Origin: Bacillota bacterium | GTDB lineage: Bacteria; Bacillota; Limnochordia; Darwinibacteriales; Darwinibacteriaceae | Direction: 5' to 3' | NCBI GenBank assembly: GCA_012838305.1 | Contig: DUPN01000003.1 | Coordinates: 29,335 to 93,334, forward strand | DNA length: 64,000 nucleotides | Part shown: piece by piece, positions 26,266 to 47,502 of the stretch | How the letters are laid out: every line of letters begins with the position of its first letter | How positions within the stretch are numbered: position 1 is the first letter of the stretch | Translations under genes and position numbers: made by a program | Notes under the pieces: model-generated | Seen by the model: only the letters and a program-made list of their open reading frames with translations | The model's database searches: none | What the model was told of the DNA's origin: nothing

Positions 26266-26392
26266 GAATAGGCTCATCAAGAGTGGCGGAGGGACTGGCC
26301 CAATGAAGCCCGGCAACCAGTGGAATGCTTTTTCACCAGGTGCTAATTCCTGCAAAGCTACTGTTCGGTAGTTTTGGCCGATGAGGGTGGAT
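26266..26392 (+). promoter_or_regulatory. SAM-I (S-box) riboswitch aptamer upstream of metK
   Basis: CTCATCAAGAGTGGCGGAGGGACTGGCCCAATGAAGCCCGGCAACC ... GGTGCTAATTCCTGCAAAG ... GATGAG (the P1 3' strand) matches the S-box consensus. Confidence 0.8.
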
Positions 26393-35339: not shown

Positions 35340-35460
35340 TCTCCTCTCATCTCTCTGAACACCTGGTTCAGCTGGAATTGGCACCTTGTGCAAGAAATGA
35401 CTTGCACTGGTTGCCGGGCTTCATAGGGCCAGTCCCTCCGCCTCTCTGGATAAGAGCAGT
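35340..35460 (-). promoter_or_regulatory. SAM-I (S-box) riboswitch aptamer upstream of metNIQ
   Basis: The minus strand reads CTCTTATCCAGAGAGGCGGAGGGACTGGCCCTATGAAGCCCGGCAACC...GGTGCCAATTCCAGC...GATGAGAG. Confidence 0.8.
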
Positions 35461-36741: not shown

Positions 36742-38424
36742 ATGCAAAAATTACAGATTTGTGTGTTCAAATATCAAGGAGCCTATCGCCTGTGTTTGGT
36801 GCGCCACCCGAGGCACTTAGGGGATCTTTCGTTAGGCGCAGCGGAGGGCGTGGCTATTCTCTCTCCGCCTCTGTCCAGTACCGCGGCGTACAAGTCGCTT
36901 GGCATCTGGCAGGGTCGCTTTCGGGGTAGGTGGAGCCGCCTGTGGTGGGCTCTGGCCCTAAGGCAGATGCACGCAAAGGGCTGGACCGTCAAGGCCCAGG
37001 CCGCAGAAGGGCAAGAACGTGTCTTCGATGTCTTGGACAGATTGAGACAACTCCTAGAGGGTCGTCTTCTGTCCGAGCAGCGCTTGATGCGGTTGCTGCG
37101 GCAGGAGGGATTTTGGCCCAGCGATATTAGCAGAGCATTGGACCTAGGGGTGCAGCGATCAGAGTTAAGGCAAGTCCCAGGATTTGTGCAGGGTTCTTGG
37201 GGACGCCTCATCTGTTCGCGGTGTCAAAGTGAAGAGGCGCAGGCGTTCCCCTGTATGGTTTGCGGAAGCGGGGACTGTCTCCTCTGTCTGGAGTGCCGCT
37301 CCATGGGTGAACACCGCTCCTGCAGTGTCTTGTTTTCCCTGCAGGCGTCTCCCAGGCCCGCTGGCCCACGTCCTGTGGAACTTAGTCTAACGTATACATT
37401 GACAGAACCGCAAAAACAGGCTAGCCAAGCCCTTCGCCAGTTCTGGCTGAGAGGTGAAGGCAAGGCTTTGGTCTGGGCGGCCTGCGGCGCAGGAAAAACG
37501 GAAGTGACCTTCGCCGTGATCCGAGACGTTCTGCAGGGGGGCGGAGAAGTGCTTTTTGCCATCCCCAGGCAGGATATTGTCAAAGAGATGGCAGATCGCC
37601 TGCGCCGCGCATTTCCCCATGTCCAGGTGGCGGCCCATTACAGCGGTCAACCCTGGTTAGCTCCTGGACCGTTGGTTGTGGCTACGACCCATCAAGTACT
37701 CCATTTCCACCGGCGCTTTCACTTGGCCATCCTTGATGAGGTGGATGCTTTTCCGTACCAAGGCAATGAAATGCTGCGCCTTGGTTTGAAGCGCGCCCTT
37801 CAACCCCAGGGAAAGCTCGTCGAAATGACCGCCACCCCCCAGGCCCAGCGCGAGTATGGGCAGATCATTACCATCCCCGCACGCTACCATGGTTTTGCCC
37901 TACCCGAGCCCGAGCTTGTGGCTTGGGCCTTGCCTCCCTGGTCTGTGTTACAGGCCGAGGATTTTCCGGCTTTTCTCTTGGACAGGCTGGGAGGCGCAGG
38001 CCACCCCTGGCTCATTTTCGCCCCCACCATTTCTGCCTGCAGTGCCCTGCACAAGGTCTTGGCGGAGGTTACGGACAAGTCCGTGGGTCTCTGCCATTCC
38101 AAAGTGCCCGACCGCGCTGAGGTGGTTCGGGATTTTCGGGAAAATAGGCTAGAGATGGTTGTGTCAACGTCTGTACTGGAACGGGGCGTAAACTTCCCGG
38201 GAGTCGGGGTGATGGTGCTCTATGCGGACCACAGTGTTTTTTCCGTGAGTACGCTGGTACAGATGGCAGGACGTGTAGGTCGAACAGCGGACTCGCCAAG
38301 GGGTACAGTCATCTTCGCCGCGGCCAGGATCGCCTGGCCCATGAAAAAATCTTTGCAGTTGATCCGCCACCTGAATGATCAGGCCAAAGAGAGGGGGCTT
38401 CTCTTCAATGAAGGCACTGCGTGA
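36742..38424 (+). CDS. comFA: Competence helicase ComFA (DEAD/DEAH-box, with a zinc-finger N-region)
   Basis: It has a Cys cluster (CSRCQ..CMVCGSGDCLLCLEC). Helicase motifs are WAACGAGKTE, ILDEVDAFPY and TIPARYHGFALPEP, which is co-linear with B. subtilis ComFA. The RBS is GAGGAGGG. Confidence 0.8.
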   Translation: MQKLQICVFKYQGAYRLCLVRHPRHLGDLSLGAAEGVAILSPPLSSTAAYKSLGIWQGRFRGRWSRLWWALALRQMHAKGWTVKAQAAEGQERVFDVLDRLRQLLEGRLLSEQRLMRLLRQEGFWPSDISRALDLGVQRSELRQVPGFVQGSWGRLICSRCQSEEAQAFPCMVCGSGDCLLCLECRSMGEHRSCSVLFSLQASPRPAGPRPVELSLTYTLTEPQKQASQALRQFWLRGEGKALVWAACGAGKTEVTFAVIRDVLQGGGEVLFAIPRQDIVKEMADRLRRAFPHVQVAAHYSGQPWLAPGPLVVATTHQVLHFHRRFHLAILDEVDAFPYQGNEMLRLGLKRALQPQGKLVEMTATPQAQREYGQIITIPARYHGFALPEPELVAWALPPWSVLQAEDFPAFLLDRLGGAGHPWLIFAPTISACSALHKVLAEVTDKSVGLCHSKVPDRAEVVRDFRENRLEMVVSTSVLERGVNFPGVGVMVLYADHSVFSVSTLVQMAGRVGRTADSPRGTVIFAAARIAWPMKKSLQLIRHLNDQAKERGLLFNEGTA

Positions 38425-39085
38425 CTGGTGGAAGGCACTAGAGCAGCTGCTGCTCCCTGCAACCCCCCCTTGCGGCCTGTGCGGAGAGTATCCCCGTTTG
38501 CCTGTGGGGGCCTGCCGGGCTTGCCTAGATTCGCTAGCGATTCGCTGGGAGCGATGGGACGTACAGGGCTACCCCTGTTTCTCCCTGTTTCCCTACCAAG
38601 GCTTCGGGCGGGACATAATCCATCGCATGAAATTCCAAGGCGGGCTGGAGATTGCCTCTACCCTTGGGTTTTTCCTGGGATTGGCCGCACGGGAAGAACC
38701 ACAGCTCGCGCAGGTTGATCTCCTCGTTCCTGTTCCTCTGCATCCAGCGAGGTTGCAGCAGAGAGGGTTCAACCAAACGGTGATTTTGTGCCAGTACATG
38801 CAGACAGCCTGGAAGCGGCCTGTCTGCGATTTTGTTTTGCGCACCCGCAGGACAGAGACCCAGAGCGGACTGTCGTCTGCCAAGCGAAAACATAATCTAC
38901 GCAGGGCCTTTGCCCTGCTGCCCGGTTTCGACTTTCGCAAGAAGCGCTGCTTAATTGTGGACGATGTGATCACTTCGGGCCATACCTTTGCCTCCCTGGC
39001 TCAGCTGATCGAAGAGTATGGAGGCCAACCCATGGGGATTTTTGCAGCCCGCACAGAAAGGTGGAATAGAGGTTATCAGCTTTAG
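38408..39085 (+). CDS. comFC: ComFC-family phosphoribosyltransferase-domain competence protein
   Basis: An N-terminal Cys pair (CGLCG..CRAC) is followed by a PRTase motif (CLIVDDVITSGHTF). It overlaps the end of comFA. Confidence 0.75.
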   Translation: MKALRDWWKALEQLLLPATPPCGLCGEYPRLPVGACRACLDSLAIRWERWDVQGYPCFSLFPYQGFGRDIIHRMKFQGGLEIASTLGFFLGLAAREEPQLAQVDLLVPVPLHPARLQQRGFNQTVILCQYMQTAWKRPVCDFVLRTRRTETQSGLSSAKRKHNLRRAFALLPGFDFRKKRCLIVDDVITSGHTFASLAQLIEEYGGQPMGIFAARTERWNRGYQL

Positions 39086-39162
39086 AAGGCTGCTTCATCT
39101 TGGTTTCCCTCCTGTCTAAATCCTGGAATTTCGGGAAGACTACTAGCTAGGGAGGGACAAAT

Positions 39163-39405
39163 ATGCTCGTATTAACACGTAAAGTCGATCAGAGCATTAT
39201 GATTGGTGATGAGATCCGCATTGTGGTCGTGGATGTCCGGGGAGACCAAGTGAAAATCGGGATCGATGCTCCCCGCGACATTATGGTGCATCGCCACGAA
39301 ATCTACCAAGGTATTCAGGAGGAAAATCAAAGAATTTCCGATCCGAAGGGGATGGGGTTTGGCGTCGTGGACAGCCCTGTCCAAGACATGACCCCTCCGA
39401 GATAA
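39163..39405 (+). CDS. csrA: Carbon storage regulator CsrA
   Basis: [48 protein letters not shown] is a canonical CsrA sequence. Confidence 0.85.
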
Positions 39406-39533
39406 CTGACAACGTTGCCCTCTGCCAAGCATGTTGATTTCCAAACCTTGACAATAGCTTGTGTATTATGATAAAGTTAAGTCACCGGAAAATTTAGGAC
39501 CGGAGTTTTAGATTTTAGGAGGAATGTTTACCA

Positions 39534-39734
39534 ATGCTAGGTAAGGTGAAGTGGTTCAACGCTGAAAAGGGTTATGGATTCATCGAGCGGGAAGACGGGG
39601 AAGGGGATGTGTTCGTACACTTTTCGGCAATTCAGCAAGAGGGCTTTAAATCTCTCCAAGAAGGCGAAAGTGTGGAATTCGATATCGTTTCTGGTGACCG
39701 AGGACCCCAAGCGGCCAACGTCGTTAAAATCTAA
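39534..39734 (+). CDS. cspA: Cold-shock protein (CspA family)
   Basis: [31 protein letters not shown] carries the RNP1 and RNP2 motifs. The product is 66 aa. Confidence 0.9.
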
Positions 39735-39773: not shown

Positions 39774-39851
39774 TTTGGGGGAGGATTTTCGCTTCAGTAT
39801 GGGAAATATTAGGTACTAAGAACGAGGTTTATCATTGAAGGAGTGATTAAT

Positions 39852-40397
39852 GTGGCCACAATTAGGATCAATATTACGGGGAAGAATCTAGAGATTACGC
39901 AGTCTTTGCGGGGCTATGTAGAAAGAAAAGTTGCCAAGCTCGAAAAATACCTCAATGATAATCGAACATTTTCCGCTGAAGTAATGCTCAGGACCGAACG
40001 GGGCATTCATATCGCAGAAGTAACCATGAACCTATCCGGCATACTTCTGCGGGGAGAGGGCAAGACAGGTGATATGTATGCGTCTATCGATGCGGCGGTG
40101 GACCGCATTGAGCGTCAGTTCAACAAGTACAAGGCGAAGATCGGTCGCAGAGTGTCCGGGCCAAAACTCGGTGAAATGGCAGCGCAGGCCCAAACAACCG
40201 CGGACGATGCACCGGAGCCGCGTATTGTCCGCACGAAGCGGTTTGCCCTCCGGCCCATGGATGTGGAGGAGGCCGTGATGCAGATGGAGCTGCTTGGACA
40301 CGATTTCTTTGTGTTCCGAGACGCCGACAGTGGTGACGTCAGTGTTGTTTATAAACGGCGGGACGGCAATTACGGCCTGATCGAGTCGGAGTTCTAG
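39852..40397 (+). CDS. hpf: Ribosome hibernation promoting factor, long form (Hpf/YvyD)
   Basis: It has the sigma-54-modulation/S30EA N-domain (INITGKNLEITQSLRGYVERKVAKLEKY) and the C-terminal dimerisation domain (FFVFRDADSGDVSVVYKRRDGNYGLIE). The start is GTG at 39852 after GAAGGAG. Confidence 0.85.
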   Translation: MATIRINITGKNLEITQSLRGYVERKVAKLEKYLNDNRTFSAEVMLRTERGIHIAEVTMNLSGILLRGEGKTGDMYASIDAAVDRIERQFNKYKAKIGRRVSGPKLGEMAAQAQTTADDAPEPRIVRTKRFALRPMDVEEAVMQMELLGHDFFVFRDADSGDVSVVYKRRDGNYGLIESEF

Positions 40398-40463: not shown

Positions 40464-40492
40464 GGGGGAGCACAAGCTCCCTCCTTTGGTTT
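40464..40492 (+). terminator. Candidate terminator after hpf
   Basis: GGGGGAGC-ACAA-GCTCCC is followed by TCCTTTGGTTT, which is a weak U-tract. Confidence 0.35.
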
Positions 40493-40498
40493 CGTCGA

Positions 40499-41872
40499 AT
40501 GTATCCCGATGAGGTGATGGCCATATTCCAGACAACGCACGACGTAGAGAACTTTGTTTATGCGTCCTACATGAAAGCCCTACCCCATATACCTCCCGGC
40601 TTGCCCGACAAGGATGTTCGAAATCCTATTTATTCTAGAATGCTCCTGGACAAGCTGGGGCGGCCCGACGCTGCGCAGTATAATCTCTTAGTTACAGGGA
40701 GCAAGGGCAAGGGTTCTGTGAGCAGAATGGTTTCCAGCCTTCTCCAAGCACACGGATACAAGGTGGGCTTGTTTTCCGGGCCTCATCTTGTGCAGTTTAA
40801 TGAACGCATCCGCATTAACGGACGGGCTGTTTCCGATCAAGATCTGATGCGCTATGCTGATTTGATTCAGCCTGCTGTGGATGGGATTCAGAGTACTCTA
40901 CCCGCCAACCACTACCTAGGACCGGTGGGTATTATCGCTGTCATGGCCATGCTGTACTTCCTTGACAACGCAACCCAGTACAATGTGATTGAGTGCGGCA
41001 AAGGGGCAAGATATGATGATGTCAACATGGTGTCCAGCAATGGATCCCTGATTAACACAGTGTTTGAAGAGCACATGCCCAAGCTGGGGACCAGTATTGT
41101 AGAAATTGCCCGTGACAAGGCCGCGGTGATCAAGTCTACGCAGGACTTTACGCTTTCCGCGGCGCAGAGGCCAGAAGTACATGAGATCATTCGCAAGGAA
41201 GCGAACAGTAAGGGTGTGCCCCTTTACAGCTATGACCATCATTTTTGCTGCAAGAATGTGGAGGTCACATCCCAAGGTACCCGCTTTGATGTCAGCACGG
41301 AGCAGGGGAGTTATCCCAATCTCAGCCTAAGACTTCTAGGCCGGCATCAGGCCTATAACGCTGCTTTGGCCATAGGTGCGGCAGAAAAGATCCTAGGGGG
41401 TCTCGATGCGGATCGGGTCGCCCACTGTTTTCAGAACCTCACTTGGCCGGGAAGGCTGGAAATCATTGACCATGATCCCACTGTAGTCTTGGATGGATGT
41501 ATTAACAGGGAGTGTGCCCAGTACATCGCCGAATTTGTGGAGTCGACCGGGAAAAAGCAAGTTGTCTTCATTGTGGGAATACCTGATGACAAGGATTACA
41601 TGGGCGTCATTCAACGCATCAAACCGTTAGCGGCCGCCATTATCCTGACCCAGACCAAGAACAGATATTTGAAGTTTTGCGGTGATCAGCTGCAGCGAGT
41701 GAAGGATGCGATGGGGGGTCCCGTCTATTTTGCCCCCACCATTGACCAGGCTCTGCATCAGGCGCAGGCGCTCGTCAGTGCGGAGGATATGGTTTGTATC
41801 ATTGGCACGCAATCTCTAGTCAAGGATACGAAAGAACTCTTTCACCAAGATACGCTGCATCTCGATGGATAG
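40499..41872 (+). CDS. FolC-family Mur-ligase-type protein (folylpolyglutamate synthase/dihydrofolate synthase-like)
   Basis: The P-loop is LLVTGSKGKGSV, and GYKVGLFSGPHLVQFNERIRINGRAVSD closely parallels E. coli FolC GYKVGVYSSPHLVRYTERVRVQG. A C-terminal GRLE motif is also present. Confidence 0.7.
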   Translation: MYPDEVMAIFQTTHDVENFVYASYMKALPHIPPGLPDKDVRNPIYSRMLLDKLGRPDAAQYNLLVTGSKGKGSVSRMVSSLLQAHGYKVGLFSGPHLVQFNERIRINGRAVSDQDLMRYADLIQPAVDGIQSTLPANHYLGPVGIIAVMAMLYFLDNATQYNVIECGKGARYDDVNMVSSNGSLINTVFEEHMPKLGTSIVEIARDKAAVIKSTQDFTLSAAQRPEVHEIIRKEANSKGVPLYSYDHHFCCKNVEVTSQGTRFDVSTEQGSYPNLSLRLLGRHQAYNAALAIGAAEKILGGLDADRVAHCFQNLTWPGRLEIIDHDPTVVLDGCINRECAQYIAEFVESTGKKQVVFIVGIPDDKDYMGVIQRIKPLAAAIILTQTKNRYLKFCGDQLQRVKDAMGGPVYFAPTIDQALHQAQALVSAEDMVCIIGTQSLVKDTKELFHQDTLHLDG

Positions 41873-41889
41873 GAGGTTGGTGAGTAGAC

Positions 41890-43887
41890 GTGGATGTTCT
41901 CCTGGACAAGAATCGGTTATTGCAGCAGGCGATCCGCCATGAACAACGGTTCTCATCCCATGGATACGATGGGCAGCCTCAAGCAGGTAGCTTCGTGTAC
42001 CAGCAAGGAACCATACCCATTTTACTGTCGGCTCCCCATGCTGTAAATCACTTTAGAGATGGGCGGTTGAAAGCGGCCGAGGTCTACACCGGGGCCATAT
42101 CGCTGCTCCTGCATGAGCTGACGCGATGCCACATCATCTATAAAGCGAAGAATGACGGGAAAGATCCCAACCACGATAGCTTCGAGGAGGATCATGGCTA
42201 TAAGCAGCGGATTGTCGATTCCTGCAGGGAACATGGGATTACGCTGTTTATTGATTTACACGGCGCCGCAGCCAGCAGGGAGATTGATCTGGATCTGGGA
42301 ACCAATCACGGCCAGTCTCTACAAGAGTTTGATTGCTTGCCCCGGATCATCCAGGTCCTTTGTGCACAGCACGGCCTGGACAATGTGGGACACAACAAAA
42401 TCTTCAGTGCCGACCCGCCGAATAATGTGACCAGAAATGTGGGGGAACGGGGCATGATCCCGGCCCTCCAGTTTGAAGTGAATCGGCGTTTTCGCCAGCC
42501 GCAGGAAGACCCCGAACGCTTCGTACACTTTGTGCAGGCTCTCTGTGACATCATTGGGTTTTTTGCCGCCTTCAACTGGAATCCGGAAACCTATGTCCTC
42601 AAGGCCAAGCGAAGCAATATACCTCTACCCATGGATAAGGTGGAGTTTGCGGCCCAGGAGATTGCCAGGTACGGCCTGAGCCAGCATGATACCTTCCAGC
42701 TTATGCCCATCCAGCCCGGGACGGCGCCCTCGCCCTTTTTGGGACGGCTGAAAATGCCAACAAGGACGAAACCACTGCACCCGGGGTATGTTTACTTAAC
42801 CACGAAGCTGTACGAAGAGGTAGTAGGGCCCTTGGCCAAAGCGTCTGGACAGGAGTATATTCTCGTCCAAAAGAGCCCAAGAAAGGATGTATCCCTGGGC
42901 ATTCCCAGGGTGGGTGTGGACCGGGTGTTTCTAGGTTCGGAACTGGTCAAAGACCTTGATCCGAAGAAGGGATACCAACTCTACAATCGTAACGATGATA
43001 TTGACTACACCTTAGACTGTGTCCAGGAGTATCAGCCAAGAAAGCTCAGTAATCGCCTGTATCTGAACTACTTTCAGCGGCAGCTGATGAATCTGAACAT
43101 CCCCAAAAAAGTGATCCCGGCCGAGCAGTACGCCTCCTATCTGAACAAAGCTGAGTTGAGTCCTGCAGAAAAGGCACTGCTGCAAGAAGCTTATGAGAAC
43201 CATAAACAGTATTATAGAATCAAAAAGGAGTATATTACCGATGAGAGCCTAAAGGCAGTGTTTCGCACACTTCGACTGGACAGAGTTGAGCTGATCGAGA
43301 TCCAAGGCGATGCACCCAGGCAGACCGAACGTGGTCTGCAGCAAACGATCCGGTGTCTAGCCGAGGGTGTACTGCGCCGGCTGATTGACACCAAACCTAT
43401 TCAGCTGCGCAGCGGGAGGCCGTACAGCACCGACGAGGATAGTGACATTGTCCGCATTATGCCCACCACCATGAAAATCCTAGGTATTTGTGAGCTCGAT
43501 AAGGTTGTGATTGAGCACAGAGGCAAAAGGGTGGTCCTGCGAGCTCTCGAGTTTGATTCGTTTGACCCGCTCCTGGACGCCAATCCCCTCGTTTATGATG
43601 AGGCGGAGGCCAATGTGCTGATCGGTATCCCCGCCAAGTACCGGCATGAGCTCGGTATCTTATCTCTGAACAGTATCGTCACGGTATCCCGGGATATGCA
43701 GTACCTTTTCGTGAAGAACGGCAATCACCAGGTCTTGCCCATTATTGGTGTCGTCTTCACCATCCTACAGACATTCCAACAGCCCATCTATCGAATTTTA
43801 TTATGCTGCGCTGCCGTACCTGCCGCTATCTATGTGAGCTTGTCACAGGAGCGAGCCCGAATTGACCGTAGACAAGGTAGGCTATAG
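41890..43887 (+). CDS. Large multidomain hypothetical protein whose N-terminal domain resembles the DUF867/PghP poly-gamma-glutamate hydrolase (zinc amidohydrolase) family, with a ~430 aa uncharacterised C-terminal region and a hydrophobic tail
   Basis: [10 protein letters not shown]...AAEVYTG...LFIDLHGAA parallels the PghP metal-binding pattern (APHGG...E...HG). The C-terminal segment is hydrophobic ([12 protein letters not shown]...[11 protein letters not shown]). The start is GTG after GGAGGTTGG. Confidence 0.35.
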
Positions 43888-43909
43888 AATAGACCCAGGA
43901 GGTAGAGAT

Positions 43910-46414
43910 GTGCTCAAGAGTATAAAGAACTTTTTCGATCCTACGGAGCGAGAATTGAAACGTCTGGACTCCGTTGTGCAGTCAATCAACGCCTTAGAGC
44001 CGGAGATGAAGGGACTCAGCGATGATCAGCTGCGTAATAAGACCAGCTACTTCCAGGCGAAATTGCAGGACGGAGCTACTCTGGACGATATACTCCCCGC
44101 AGCCTTTGCCGTTGTGCGCGAGACATCGCGGCGGGTCTTAAAGATGCGCCACTTTGATGTGCAGCTTCTCGGTGGAATCATCTTGCACCAAGGGCGCATT
44201 GCCGAGATGAAGACGGGGGAAGGAAAGACATTGGTGGCCACCTTGCCGGTCTACCTCAATGCCTTGACCAACCAGGGAGTCCATGTAGTCACCGTTAATG
44301 ACTACCTGGCTCGGCGTGACGCGGAATGGATGGGACAGATCTATGAGTTCCTCGGGCTCGAGGTTGGCGTGGTGGTCCATGGGCTTAGTTTTGAAGAACG
44401 TAAAGCAGCGTATAGTGCACATATCACCTATGGAACCAACAATGAATTCGGCTTTGACTATTTGCGGGACAATATGGTTGTCTATCCGGAACAAATGGTG
44501 CAAAGGGAGCTTCATTATGCCATTGTGGACGAAGTAGACTCCATCTTAATCGACGAAGCGAGAACTCCGCTGATCATCTCTGGCGCAGCGGAAGATTCAG
44601 CTCAGCACTACATGCGTTTTGCTCAGATTGTTCCCCAGCTCAAGCCGGAACGGGACTATGCTGTTGACGAGAAGGCGAGAACGATTGCCATTACGGAAGA
44701 CGGGGTGGCGAGGGTTGAGAAGATTCTCGGTGTCGAAAACCTCTTTGATGATGTGCATTTTGAACTCAACCATTACTTGAACCAAGCACTGAAGGCCAAA
44801 GAATTCTTTATGCGGGACCGGGATTATGTTGTCAAAGACGGCGAAGTGATCATCGTTGACGAGTTTACGGGCCGCATGATGCCGGGCCGGCGCTATTCCG
44901 ACGGGCTTCACCAGAGTATCGAGGCGAAAGAAGGGGTTTCTGTCTTAAAGGAAAGCCAGACCCTAGCCTCTATTACCTATCAGAATTATTTCCGAATGTA
45001 TACTAAGCTTGCGGGAATGACCGGAACGGCCAAGACCGAAGAAGACGAGTTTCGGAAAATCTATGGGCTCGATGTAGCCGTGATCCCCACGAACATGCCT
45101 ATGATTCGAAAGGACTATCCCGACGCGGTCTACAAGACTGTTAAGGGTAAAGCTGATGCCATTATTCGAGATATCATGGAGCGTCACAGTAAAGGCCAAC
45201 CTGTCTTGGTGGGTACCATCAGCATTGAAGCGTCGGAAATGTACAGCGCACTGTTGAAACGCAAGGGCATCGAGCACCAGGTGCTCAATGCCAAGTATCA
45301 TGACAAGGAAGCGGAGATTGTGAAACAGGCTGGTCAGCGGGGCATGGTCACCATTGCCACGAATATGGCTGGCCGGGGGACAGACATTGTCCTTGGAGAA
45401 GGCGTGGTGGAACTGGGCGGTCTGCATATCATTGGTACTGAGCGCCATGAGTCCCGCCGTATCGATAATCAGCTGCGGGGACGTTCCGGGCGGCAAGGGG
45501 ATCCAGGTTCCTCCCAGTTTTATGTGTCCATGGAAGATGACATCATGCGCCTCTTCGGCTCCGATCGGATTATGGGGCTGATGGATCGTCTTGGCTGGGA
45601 AGAGGATCAGGTGATTGACCATCCCCAGATCAGCAAAGGGATTGAGAACGCGCAAAAACGCGTGGAGAGCCGCCACTTTGAAATACGAAAACAGGTTCTG
45701 GAATATGACGATGTCATGAACCAGCAGCGGGAAGTGATCTACGAGCAAAGACGGGGTGTATTACTGAACGAAAACATCTCCGAGCAGATTGATGCCATGT
45801 TCGAGCCTGTCTTTGAGCGCTTGGTGCAGCGCTATGCCGATGAGAAGGTCATCCCGGAGGAATGGAATATTGAGGCCATTCAACAGCAGTACAAAGAGAT
45901 CGTAGGGAGACCCCTTGCCAAGACGAGCCAGGAGCTGGGCGATCTCACCCCTGCTCAGATGGTGCAGGAGCTCACGGCCCTGGCCAGGCAGGCCTACGAG
46001 CAGAGGACGGCGGAGTACGGAGCGGACTTGCAGAGACAGATTGAGAAAGTGGTTCTTCTTCAGATCACGGATCAGAAATGGATGAACCATTTAAGTGCCA
46101 TGGATGACTTGCGGGAAGGAATTGGGCTGCGGGCTTACGCCCAGAGGGATCCCCTTCTGGAGTACCGTTTTGAAGCGTATGAGATGTTCCAGGAGATGAT
46201 CCACAGCATCCAGGAAGATACCATCAGTATGCTCTTCAAGGTTCGTTTGACCTCGCCGGAGAGCAGCAGGCCCAAAGACCGCCTGGCCGGTGCCCAAACG
46301 AATCAAGGTGACGAAGTGGAGAAGCAGCCCCGTCGAGTGGAAAAGAAGGTGGGTCGCAATGATCCATGTCCTTGCGGAAGCGGGAAGAAATACAAGAAGT
46401 GTCATGGGAGGTAA
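43910..46414 (+). CDS. secA: Preprotein translocase ATPase SecA
   Basis: It begins MLKSIKNFF.. and has the motifs [35 protein letters not shown] and the C-terminal zinc finger [14 protein letters not shown]. The start is GTG at 43910 after AGGAGG. Confidence 0.9.
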
Positions 46415-46418
46415 TCTA

Positions 46419-47502
46419 GTGCACGAACGACTAAAAGACTTAGGCAGGCGGATTGAGGAAATGCGGGGATATCTTTGACATCGATCAAAAGGAGACCAAC
46501 CTCAAGGAGCTGGAGCAAGGTATGTTGGCCGCAGGATTCTGGGATAACCAAGAATTGGCTCAGCAGACCACCAAGGAGATCAGTATCCTCAAACGAACTA
46601 TAGAAGAGTGGAATTCCGTCCATGCTCTCCATGAAGATGCCTTGACGTTGGTAGAATTACTGGATGAAGCGGAGGACGAGAACTTCCGGGCCGAACTGGA
46701 GAGTCTCTTCCCCCGTCTGGAGCGTGCCGTGGATGAACTGGAGTTGGCCTCGCTGCTAAATGGCGAGTATGATCACGGAAATGCTATTTTGACCATCCAT
46801 CCAGGAGCAGGGGGAACGGAGTCCCAAGACTGGGCATCCATGTTACACAGGATGTATGTCCGCTGGGCTGAAGATCAAGGTTACGACGTAGAAGTCCTTG
46901 ATTACCAGGCAGGGGATGAAGCTGGATTGAAGGATGCAACTCTCCTCATCAAGGGACTCAATGCTTACGGCTATCTGCGCAGCGAAAAGGGGGTCCATCG
47001 TCTGGTTCGAATTTCGCCCTTTGACTCATCGGGGCGCAGGCATACTTCCTTTTCATCGGTGGAGGTCCTGCCGGAGATCGAGGATGATCTCACCATCGAG
47101 ATCAATCCCGATGATCTGCGCGTCGACACCTATCGAGCGAGCGGTGCAGGGGGCCAGCACGTGAACAAGACCGACTCAGCGATTCGCATCACCCATTTGC
47201 CTTCCGGTATCGTGGTGCAATGCCAGTCGGAGCGATCCCAGCATGCCAACCGTGAAGCGGCGTTGAAAATCCTCAGAGCGCGTCTTCTGGAGCGGCAGCT
47301 AGAGGAGCAGCGGGCCAAGCTGGAGAGTATCAAGGGCCAGCAGCAGGATATTGCCTGGGGCAGCCAAATCCGCTCCTATGTGTTCTGCCCCTACACCATG
47401 GTGAAGGACCATCGCAGCAATGTGGAAACGGGCAATGTAGATGGTGTCATGGACGGACATTTGGAACCATTCATTGAGGGCTTCCTCAAGTTGAAGCAAT
47501 GA
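46419..47502 (+). CDS. prfB: Peptide chain release factor 2 (PrfB), made by a programmed +1 frameshift: frame 0 covers 46419-46475 and the +1 frame covers 46477-47502
   Basis: Frame 0 encodes MHERLKDLGRRIEEMRGYL up to CTT-TGA-C (46473-46479), preceded by the internal SD-like GGGGAT. The +1 frame continues DIDQKETNLKEL... through the RF2 SPF motif (RISPFDSSGRRHTSF) and the GGQ motif (RASGAGGQHVNKTDSA). Confidence 0.85.

Follow-up and report, generated by a model that had tools for sequence, protein, structure and literature searches.

A FolC-family ligase and a 665-aa hydrolase-type protein, encoded side by side in a Bacillota contig, are the two-gene form of a conserved module that is widespread in bacteria and has so far gone undescribed. 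The full module consists of an FGase/PghP-fold amidohydrolase, a RimK-type ATP-grasp ligase and a FolC-paralog ligase, and its most likely role is to lengthen and shorten the glutamate tail of some molecule, possibly folate. A full-text literature search, whose scope excluded the amidoligase survey of Iyer et al. (2009), returned no description of the trio.

Gene pair between hpf and secA

In the window (the whole 64-kb stretch of DNA that was analysed), both genes are present as ORFs (Table 1), 17 nt apart as an earlier note on this DNA had stated. A consensus scan predicted no terminator in this gap, and ligase and hydrolase are, in that order, probably co-transcribed. An alternative ligase start is possible at Met7 (40517). 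The pair sits between hpf, with its Ribosomal_S30AE and cognate C-terminal domains, and secA (both identified with Pfam), genes whose adjacency, which the pair would interrupt, is textbook Bacillus synteny. The hairpin that follows hpf has a weak T-tract and probably marks, as judged from sequence, the putative 3' end of the hpf transcript. At the other end, the promoter-like element within the 665-aa gene is a candidate secA promoter that may have been retained after module insertion. The most likely secA start is GTG 43910, also returned by an independent gene call, rather than TTG 43862, and with this start secA would not overlap the 665-aa ORF.

Table 1. Features of the gene pair and its flanks (window positions).
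Feature	Position	Strand	Basis or remarks
hpf	39843..40397		Pfam; upstream of ligase
Terminator-like hairpin	40464..40483	+	Consensus scan and sequence; after hpf, 16 nt before ligase start codon
FolC-paralog ATP-dependent amide ligase, 457 aa, cluster-type clade	40499..41872	+	TIGR01499, Mur_ligase_M/C
Shine-Dalgarno AGGAGG for 665-aa gene	41871..41876	+	Overlaps ligase stop codon; 13 nt before GTG
Hydrolase-type ORF, 665 aa	41890..43887	+	GTG start
Domain 1, FGase/PghP-fold metallo-amidohydrolase, aa 1–235	41890..42594	+	Candidate residues H50, E64, D92, N94, H124, E196, R202
Middle region, aa 236–500	42595..43389	+	Beta-rich plus helical, confidently folded in AF2
Double-psi beta-barrel, CDC48/VCP N-domain type, aa 501–602	43390..43695	+	Fold match
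Two C-terminal helices, aa 603–628 and 632–650, and basic tail	43696..43887	+	Hydropathy, AF2, conservation
Promoter-like TTGACC-17-TAGAAT	43862..43890	+	Consensus scan, 10/12 matches; inside 3' end of 665-aa gene
secA, neighbour outside module	43910..46414	+	GTG start, AGGAGG at 43897–43902

The ligase belongs to a separate FolC-paralog clade

The ligase is a FolC-family enzyme, as first proposed in the earlier note. It scored above the cutoff of the TIGR01499 folC model (248.6 bits, cutoff 162.65; 319–336 bits for the canonical FolC neighbours in Peptoniphilus) and matched PF08245 (Mur_ligase_M; 53.2 bits, cutoff 24) and PF02875 (Mur_ligase_C; 38.7 bits, cutoff 28.4), the Mur_ligase_M plus C organisation that it shares with FolC/FPGS-DHFS of known structure (L. 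casei FPGS, 1FGS; T. maritima, 1O5Z; E. coli FolC, 1W78). Its best PDB matches were all FolC/FPGS, with E values of 7e-41 to 6e-16. Moreover, the P-loop Lys, the Mg ligands, the carbamylated Lys and the Asp of GGxxDxTN are kept: K71, E165, H192 and K207, invariant in alignment A4, align to the P-loop Lys, Glu143, His170 and Lys185 of the L. casei enzyme (Lys185 being the position of carbamylation), and the equivalents of R300 and D313 are likewise retained, with H316 replaced by Ile.

This last replacement is characteristic of a clade. At the His position of the DGAHN motif, 19 of the 20 members of the clade have Ile, and every one of the 57 canonical sequences in which the motif could be read has His; FPGS ligand data being scarce, the meaning of the His loss is uncertain (PMC10861534). 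The clade was monophyletic in 48 of 50 bootstraps (tree from fast distances), its ligases share ~22–26% identity with the canonical FolC encoded next to them, and it is marked by GSKGKGS (P-loop), GKGAxYDDVN (GKGARYDDVN in the window), D(A/G)CIN (DGCIN in the window) and a clade-specific N-terminal extension, EAEDYIYxSY. The ligase also fell below both FolC equivalog models (NF008101, 130.4 versus 360 bits; NF047860, 191.9 versus 700 bits), and far below those for PgsB (TIGR04012, 21.5 versus 222.7 bits), cyanophycin (TIGR02068, 28.3 versus 850 bits) and the Mur enzymes. From these sequence comparisons, we assign it to a FolC-paralog clade without the conserved DGAHN His, distinct from ordinary FolC. 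Given the failed equivalogs and the motif changes (DGAHN to DGCIN, GMGGRxDxTN to GKGAxYDDVN), it may act on an acceptor other than folate or add an amino acid other than glutamate.

Domain architecture of the 665-aa protein

The metal-binding pattern that the earlier note had picked out, SAPH50A...E64...DLH124G, occurs in the protein and is conserved across the family, as are H50 and H124 within it; the acid (E/D64, in 34 of 37 sequences) lies 14 residues past H50, with no acid at H50+5. The Zn motif of PghP has the spacing H-x4-E, which is missing here. Domain 1 has an FGase/PghP fold with an intact, conserved set of candidate metal/catalytic residues. Its assignment to PF05908 (DUF867), by comparison, did not hold up in Pfam searches. 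The window protein gave no PF05908 match even at E≤10, and among relatives one of five matched at E ~1e-3, while P0094 reached 20.2 bits (cutoff 22). PF05013 (FGase), the nearest Pfam family, gave no match with the full-length protein and 29.0 bits (cutoff 28.9) with the isolated domain (aa 1–243), a marginal match limited to aa 108–200; four of five relatives matched it, and other family members scored 29–37 bits. NCBIfam models were silent on this domain, and PDB sequence searches with the full protein and an N-domain profile yielded nothing significant. In structure comparison the domain was about equally close to both Pfam families, with PghP and YndL among its close fold neighbours and cell-wall amidases and Csd4 more distant. 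The best viral structural match was a giant-virus FGase-like protein.

The window protein nonetheless differs from the characterised members of this fold. N-formylglutamate amidohydrolases (PF05013; 2Q7S, 2ODF) share the fold, but the window protein has another architecture and other gene partners, and hut genes are absent beside the hydrolase in the window and in 23 related loci. PghP and YndL (PF05908; 3A9L, 5ONJ) are phage or secreted proteins, whereas the window protein is predicted to be cytoplasmic and membrane-tethered, and carries ~430 extra residues.

Those residues had been described as a region of unknown function ending in a hydrophobic segment. Part of this stretch can now be annotated, as a barrel and a helical hairpin; the middle region matched no family. 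An AF2 model from a 3-sequence alignment (pLDDT 41.5) was set aside; in the AF2 model used, pLDDT in the middle region was mostly 83–96. Its conserved motifs are LTNRLIxxLFG, IGxPKA and PRYYRxLLG, and profile searches gave no Pfam match and no significant PDB match. That it duplicates the C-terminal barrel was considered and rejected (hhalign, a match of only 14 columns at probability 2.6%). The barrel itself has a DPBB fold by comparison of predicted structures; against PF02359 it scored 12.9 bits (E 0.13; cutoff 35.1), and its best homolog 32.1 bits. No AAA domain was found in the 665-aa protein or in neighbouring genes. The hydrophobic segment was located at aa 633–651, preceded by a second one at aa 615–628, and the two C-terminal helices can be read as a membrane hairpin (~aa 603–652 in the predicted model). 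In the basic tail that follows, the E654-R655 motif is family-wide. The tail (EER.KVK) was also considered as an acceptor for self-glutamylation, which is unlikely: proteins of the window clade extend beyond it, and since it thus ends at a different residue there, it would be a poor self-acceptor.

The module across genomes

Word-indexed homolog searches returned only 5–6 proteins each and greatly under-represented the family, for which an exhaustive HMMER search found 1590 clusters. The hydrolase of the module is usually extended, like that of the window, by the middle region, CDC48-N-like barrel and membrane hairpin; alphaproteobacterial versions are soluble proteins of 246–249 aa without the membrane module. 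The window pair recurs in its closest relatives (59% and 55% identity for ligase and hydrolase in L001/L007; 50% and 45% in L008), so that the hydrolase gene is indeed conserved beside the ligase, and the two are adjacent in many lineages of several phyla. Most clade-type loci have such neighbours, as opposed to none of 75 canonical FolC loci, which excludes a chance pairing. A hydrolase::RimK gene fusion also exists. Because of this fusion and of the recurrent adjacency, we consider the two genes to be functionally linked, as the earlier note had supposed.

In most lineages the module includes the RimK-type ligase, and the common gene order is hydrolase, ATP-grasp, Mur-like. The models nearest to this third partner are RimK, MptN, LysX and CofF; it scored 138.5 bits, just below the RimK-family cutoff (143.4), and comparably on the LysX model, and the Bacillaceae versions are divergent ATP-grasp proteins with weak TTL and RimK similarity. 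No RimK/ATP-grasp gene was found in the 64-kb window by tblastn and profile HMM, and the partner is also absent beside L001/L007 and L008. Four loci (two Sporosarcina, Acetatifactor and a Lachnospiraceae MAG) have the long-form hydrolase with no ligase in reach, and one has RimK and ligase without hydrolase, so the parts of the module can work apart.

The module adjoins folC in only two of at least seven lineages, and no other folate genes recur near its loci. Flanking genes showed no recurrent theme (ABC-F, Der, PlsY, polysaccharide synthesis, SDR, amidohydrolase, MscS, DinB). Response regulators lie at variable distance from four module loci and are probably generic paralogs. An origin in phage or in anti-phage defence was rejected: no relatives were found on viral contigs, and PADLOC gave no match for the ligase, the 665-aa protein, the RimK-like protein or the C-module.

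Proposed function and alternatives

The earlier note had suggested that the pair could be a make-and-trim system for a gamma-glutamylated molecule such as folate, an F420-like cofactor or poly-gamma-glutamylated envelope components, any of which may be the substrate. Make-and-trim is still the best reading, strengthened by the finding that an alpha-L-glutamate ligase of RimK type is a frequent third partner; the activities, the substrate, the membrane topology and the direction of regulation are what we infer from the families and their linkage. Taken as a whole, the explanation that FolC paralog, RimK-type ligase and tethered hydrolase together make and trim glutamate tails is one that we favour tentatively, at a little under an even chance. 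The FolC paralog would act on a small molecule ending in glutamate, using ATP to turn its terminal carboxylate into an acyl-phosphate, to which an amino acid would then be joined (most likely glutamate, gamma-linked). In modules that have it, the RimK-type ligase would extend or cap the tail with alpha-linked glutamate, like MptN, CofF and MyfB. The hydrolase domain, presumably held at the cytoplasmic face of the membrane by the C-terminal hairpin, would cleave glutamyl amide bonds and so set tail length or turnover, and the barrel and middle region may dock the substrate or the ligases. Folate/pteroyl-(Glu)n species would be the leading candidate substrate.

Parts of this scheme have precedents. 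MptN, CofF and, for methylofuran, MyfA/MyfB (PMC8141765) add alpha-linked glutamates to glutamate-tailed cofactors, but they have neither a FolC-type ligase nor a hydrolase as partner, and the RimK-type ligase of the module has both. Eukaryotic FPGS and gamma-glutamyl hydrolase (folates) and TTLL and CCP (tubulin) are make-and-trim systems without orthology to the module, whose genes, unlike theirs, are operonic and whose hydrolase bears a barrel and a membrane anchor; gamma-glutamyl hydrolase differs in fold and belongs to the cysteine peptidases. PgsB is a membrane-associated FolC-like ligase. Cyanophycin synthetase CphA1 and PgsBCA combine the two ligase superfamilies of the module, and CphA1, with its hydrolytic N domain (a third active site; PMC9262961), ATP-grasp and Mur-like parts, even has them in the common gene order of the module, in which, however, the proteins are separate and PgsC/PgsA are missing.

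A more specific version, which we regard as rather doubtful, is a new, widespread glutamylation system in which a dedicated FolC paralog and the RimK-type ligase build a mixed gamma/alpha glutamate chain on an acceptor outside the standard folate pool, with a membrane-docked FGase/PghP-fold deglutamylase, which would be the first such intracellular enzyme of bacteria and whose barrel would recognise the substrate or a partner. The acceptor could be a cofactor or metabolite that is new, or else a separate folate species with an alpha-linked cap. Were it folate, the module would also hold a bacterial counterpart of gamma-glutamyl hydrolase and account for the synthesis of alpha-linked folylpolyglutamate, a gene for which has to our knowledge never been identified.

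Unlikely, to our mind, is a role in envelope chemistry, with the module acting at the inner membrane face on a gamma-glutamyl envelope precursor or polymer (peptidoglycan stem-peptide/muropeptide recycling or a poly-glutamate-type polymer), the FolC paralog as a Mur/PgsB-type ligase and the hydrolase as a gamma-glutamyl amidase of PghP, MpaA or Csd4 type. The membrane tether predicted in most lineages (hydropathy, AF2), the fold neighbours named above and the derivation of known poly-glutamate makers from two enzyme families, RimK and FolC/PgsB-type ligases, would fit such a role, as would family members with SLH, SH3b or Cu_amine_oxidN1 domains, which are clearly extracytoplasmic. The module hydrolase, however, has no signal peptide and a catalytic domain predicted to be cytoplasmic, its alphaproteobacterial versions lack any membrane module, the ligase clearly has FolC as its nearest kin and falls far short of the PgsB, cyanophycin and Mur equivalogs, and neither PgsC/PgsA nor mur or cell-wall genes recur in module neighbourhoods. 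For at least some of the family, envelope substrates are indicated by secreted relatives of the hydrolase that carry SLH or SH3b domains, a point against the favoured reading.

We consider it quite improbable that the module is a bacterial analogue of TTLL/CCP, in which the ligases glutamylate a protein at a side chain or at its C-terminus, the barrel recognises the protein and the M14-like-fold hydrolase deglutamylates it. RimK itself modifies ribosomal protein S6, the Bacillaceae ATP-grasp proteins show weak TTL and RimK similarity, AAA ATPases use barrels of the CDC48-N type to bind proteins or peptides, and the window copy adjoins the ribosome-associated hpf; but this adjacency is unique to the window, the module is not accompanied by any conserved gene that could encode a target, the tail is a poor self-acceptor and, counting further against it, we know of no Mur/FolC-family ligase that acts on a protein.

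Still harder to sustain is small-peptide or amino-group-carrier biosynthesis of LysX/LysW or NAAG type, in which the hydrolase would release or deprotect the product (e.g. by N-acyl removal) rather than reverse the ligation. The LysX score, the deacylation of N-acyl-glutamate implied by the FGase family name and a non-glutamate substrate, which the DGCIN change may mean, speak for it, whereas the module is just two or three genes embedded among housekeeping genes, and genes for carrier proteins, transporters or tailoring enzymes do not recur nearby. Finally, that the ligase is simply the housekeeping FolC and the 665-aa gene an unrelated neighbour, as its TIGR01499 score, the pipeline names of its orthologs and the absence of a second folC from the window (profile search) might suggest, is very hard to reconcile with the conservation of the pair or trio across phyla, the clade-wide His loss, the RimK fusion, the failed equivalogs and the canonical folC that coexists with the clade ligase in Peptoniphilus and Olsenella.

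Implications of a proposed glutamate-tail module

Annotation pipelines hide this conserved module under a housekeeping name: the hydrolase is labelled 'hypothetical protein', and orthologs of the clade ligase 'bifunctional FPGS/DHFS'. FolC may therefore be miscounted when folate pathways are reconstructed for bacteria of gut, rumen and soil. Cofactor retention and enzyme affinity depend on how long glutamate tails are or of what type, and active trimming of the tails is so far known only in eukaryotes. If the make-and-trim reading is true, it would reveal how bacteria control this property, and a CDC48-N-type barrel that stands alone on a bacterial membrane anchor would gain its first function. 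The hypothesis is directly testable, as the module occurs in the cultured strains Peptoniphilus lacrimalis DSM 7455, Butyrivibrio sp. FCS014, Oribacterium asaccharolyticum ACB7 and Niallia sp. Krafla_26.

Organization of the ligase–hydrolase locus

The earlier note had claimed two adjacent ORFs with a 17-nt gap, and both were found exactly so placed: a gene for a FolC-paralog ligase followed, 17 nt downstream, by one for a large hydrolase-type protein of 665 aa, with its own Shine-Dalgarno sequence and no terminator predicted in the intervening gap (see table). The N-terminal domain of the latter (aa 1–235), assigned in the note to DUF867, is by Pfam nearest to FGase instead, with a marginal score. 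The ~430-aa region described there as of unknown function can now be annotated in part, as a CDC48-N-type double-psi barrel and a putative C-terminal membrane hairpin. At 0.52, the GC content of the two genes differs little from that of the window as a whole (about 0.54 on average), and there is thus no sign of recent acquisition. Upstream of hpf (36742–39734) lie genes for a comFA-like helicase and a comFC-like phosphoribosyltransferase, csrA and a cold-shock gene, a Bacillus-like synteny that fits a Bacillota origin and insertion of the module into an hpf-secA-prfB block.

Sequence signals point to GTG 43910 as the most likely start codon of secA, the one also used in an independent gene call (Logan contig, sample SRR11702767), in which case it would not overlap the 665-aa gene. 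TTG 43862, given as the start in a mechanical ORF list, would make the two genes overlap and is the less likely choice, because GTG 43910 has its own AGGAGG and the independent call agrees. A sigma-70-like promoter-like site may keep secA transcription independent.

Features mapped in the window
Feature	Position	Strand	Remarks
SAM (S-box) riboswitch	26271-26387	+	Rfam 74.0 bits, above gathering score
SAM (S-box) riboswitch	35344-35456	-	Rfam 97.3 bits, above gathering score
hpf	39843..40397		upstream of ligase gene
Terminator-like hairpin	40464-40483		3' of hpf, upstream of ligase gene
FolC-paralog ligase gene	40499..41872	+	457 aa, ORF
Shine-Dalgarno AGGAGG of hydrolase gene	41871-41876		overlaps ligase stop codon, 13 nt 5' of GTG
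Hydrolase gene	41890..43887	+	665 aa, GTG start
Promoter-like site TTGACC-17-TAGAAT	43862-43890		sigma-70-like; within 3' end of hydrolase gene
secA	GTG 43910 (likeliest start)		downstream of hydrolase gene; AGGAGG at 43897-43902

The ligase and hydrolase belong to a conserved gene module

An exhaustive profile search for the hydrolase family yielded 1590 clusters at E ≤ 1e-3 and 341 at E ≤ 1e-30, comprising more than 50 full-length forms, many stand-alone domains of ~220 aa and some proteins with only the C-terminal part of the 665-aa protein (C-module). Gene neighbourhoods were collected at 28 loci in genomes and on several contigs from metagenomes. The ligase-then-hydrolase order is shared by the closest relatives, which come from one Tissierella MAG (identities 55% and 59%) and one Bacillota MAG (45% and 50%). 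Another order, hydrolase, RimK-type ATP-grasp ligase and FolC paralog, in many cases with the stop codon of one gene overlapping the start codon of the next, occurs in Lachnospiraceae, Butyrivibrio, Peptoniphilus, Olsenella (Actinomycetota), a Bacteroidota-like lineage and rumen Alphaproteobacteria, the last having a hydrolase of only 246–249 aa without the C-terminal module. In P. lacrimalis, for example, the clade ligase is WP_019034436 and its RimK-like partner WP_019034437. The Bacillaceae loci encode the hydrolase domain and C-module as separate genes, followed by the ligase and a divergent ATP-grasp protein (PF02655, 25.0 bits), and the same split is found in Oribacterium and one Lachnospiraceae MAG.

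When co-occurrence of the pair was checked across genomes, as proposed in the note, the ligase adjoined the hydrolase in 17 of the 23 tabulated loci, among which no gene family besides the module partners recurred; the flanks are unrelated housekeeping genes that differ from lineage to lineage. Four long-form loci (two Sporosarcina, Acetatifactor and one Lachnospiraceae MAG) have no ligase nearby, and one metagenome locus (L039:4953-7335) has a RimK-like gene and a clade-type ligase, that is, a FolC paralog of the kind found with module partners, with no detectable FGase-like gene upstream of these two. A metagenome scan with a P-loop pattern provided a built-in control of 80 FolC-encoding loci: an FGase-like, C-module or RimK-like neighbour within 6 kb was present in none of the 75 canonical-type loci, and the five clade-type loci comprised two with the full trio, one with RimK and two on truncated contigs. 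Moreover, one hydrolase relative (P0116, 496 aa) is a natural fusion of an FGase-like domain (aa 5–206) to a RimK-type ATP-grasp domain (PF08443, aa 303–479, 142.9 bits). The shared loci, the empty canonical controls and this fusion therefore establish the pairing as a real, conserved functional association; with only two genes, the copy in the window is a reduced form of the module.

Two metagenome contigs (L039 and L038:65-1549) carry after the ligase gene a conserved, Gly/Tyr-rich ORF of ~200 aa with the pattern LPSPDTGATM...GIYGI.Y..NYSLTGNYGYGYS. In Marinactinospora rubrisoli (L034:8645-13146), a 519-aa ORF ends in an FGase-like domain. Its neighbour is a 748-aa protein with a weak Mur_ligase_M match only, and the opposite strand carries a FolC-like gene; the arrangement may represent a separate, actinobacterial version of the hydrolase–ligase association.

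The ligase falls in a clade distinct from canonical FolC

The ligase, with Mur_ligase_M and Mur_ligase_C domains, passes the TIGR01499 folC model (248.6 bits; cutoff 162.65) and lies below both FolC equivalog cutoffs (130 vs 360 and 192 vs 700). Among proteins of solved structure, the closest to it are FolC/FPGS enzymes throughout, from T. maritima (1O5Z, E 7e-41), M. tuberculosis, L. casei and E. coli. Alignment with the L. casei enzyme showed that equivalents of the P-loop Lys, E143, H170, K185 (the carbamylated lysine), R300 and D313 are kept, a pattern implying that the ligase should be a competent ATP-dependent amide ligase.

A distance tree was built from 20 ligases of the cluster type and 75 of the canonical FolC type, all recovered from loci in genomes or metagenomes; the cluster-type ligases were monophyletic in 48 of 50 bootstraps. 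The DGAHN motif reads DGCIN in the window ligase, with Ile at the position of the conserved His316; this Ile is present in 19/20 cluster-type ligases, compared to His in all 57 canonical sequences with a readable motif. Because ligand-binding data for FPGS are scarce, the glutamate site being known from modelling only (PMC10861534), we treat the Ile as no more than a signature of the clade. The P-loop is likewise altered (GSKGKGS versus GTNGKGS in canonical FolC), and canonical GMGGRxDxTN is replaced by GKGARYDDVN.

Possible function of the module

FolC/FPGS enzymes add gamma-linked glutamates, and the FGase/PghP superfamily cleaves N-acyl-glutamate and poly-gamma-glutamate bonds. For the RimK-like partner, the closest families are the alpha-L-glutamate ligases RimK, MptN, LysX and CofF (TIGR00768, 138.5 bits; cutoff 143.4), and RimK-type enzymes such as MyfA/MyfB make or cap cofactor glutamate tails (PMC8141765). 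All three families thus point to glutamyl amide chemistry. Going beyond the observed folds, conserved residues, clade structure and gene linkage, the most economical model that we infer is that the module makes and trims the glutamate tail of some small molecule in the cytoplasm. The hydrolase would be held at the membrane in most lineages, and the barrel and middle region would form a docking surface. The reading proposed in the earlier note is partly supported: the functional link and the make-and-trim logic are considerably strengthened, the activities and substrate standing as predictions.

Folate is the leading candidate substrate, because the ligase can still be recognised as FolC, two unrelated lineages have the module next to a canonical folC, and folates of E. 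coli have long been known to carry alpha-linked glutamates (Ferone, 1986, cited in PMC1971073). Against it stand the altered motifs of the ligase, the lack of further folate genes in the neighbourhood and a set of hydrolase paralogs that are clearly extracellular. These paralogs (P0006, P0094, P0114, P0131 and P0152), secreted or cell-wall-anchored proteins with SH3b, SLH or Cu_amine_oxidN1 domains, suggest that an extracellular branch of the family acts on envelope polymers or envelope gamma-glutamyl substrates, and so lend weight to a rival role of the module in envelope/peptidoglycan or polymer chemistry. Further rivals to folate are a TTLL/CCP-like glutamylation of proteins and a small-peptide pathway.

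In the two lineages with an adjoining canonical folC, the module lies directly 3' of valS-folC (Peptoniphilus) or directly 5' of another folC (Olsenella). TIGR01499 scores were 319–336 bits for the neighbouring folC versus 217 for the cluster copy in Peptoniphilus, and 257 versus 209 in Olsenella; the window ligase falls in the lower band with the other scored cluster copies (200–259 bits), all with the clade motifs. The 64-kb window, which comes from an uncultured organism, contains neither another FolC-like gene nor one for an ATP-grasp protein and, judging from its relatives, the window ligase would be an additional paralog beside a canonical FolC. The null model of a housekeeping folC next to an unrelated 665-aa gene is strongly disfavoured.

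Each single domain of the module belongs to a known superfamily. In public databases, proteins of the 665-aa type are entered as "hypothetical protein" and the ligase is entered as either "bifunctional FPGS/DHFS" or "Mur ligase family protein", and in the papers searched in full text we found no description of the ligase clade, the hydrolase-barrel-hairpin architecture or the three-gene module. There was no match to any PADLOC defence model, nor were module relatives found on viral contigs. We group the module with the glutamyl ligase/hydrolase systems. To specialists in folate, cofactors or polyglutamylation, a FolC paralog that is both widespread and cryptic, and that has RimK and hydrolase partners dedicated to it, would come as a surprise, and the hypothesis is testable in the cultured strains that have the module.

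Other hydrolase relatives and features of the window

A 723-aa protein from a JGI contig (P0003) joins a "Lon protease" product in frame to residues ~440–632 of the window 665-aa protein (99% identity); it is most likely a chimeric metagenome assembly, though it may reflect a true rearrangement in a close relative. In P0005 (564 aa), from an AT-rich organism, QueA (S-adenosylmethionine:tRNA ribosyltransferase-isomerase) is followed by a C-terminal FGase-like domain, which could be a true fusion or a gene-call artefact.

The entire 64-kb window has no tRNA genes. The prfB (RF2) region (46419–46480) shows a classic programmed +1 frameshift: a short ORF runs from GTG 46419 (VHERLKDLGRRIEEMRGYL) to a CTT TGA C site (46473–46479), from where the main RF2 frame runs on.
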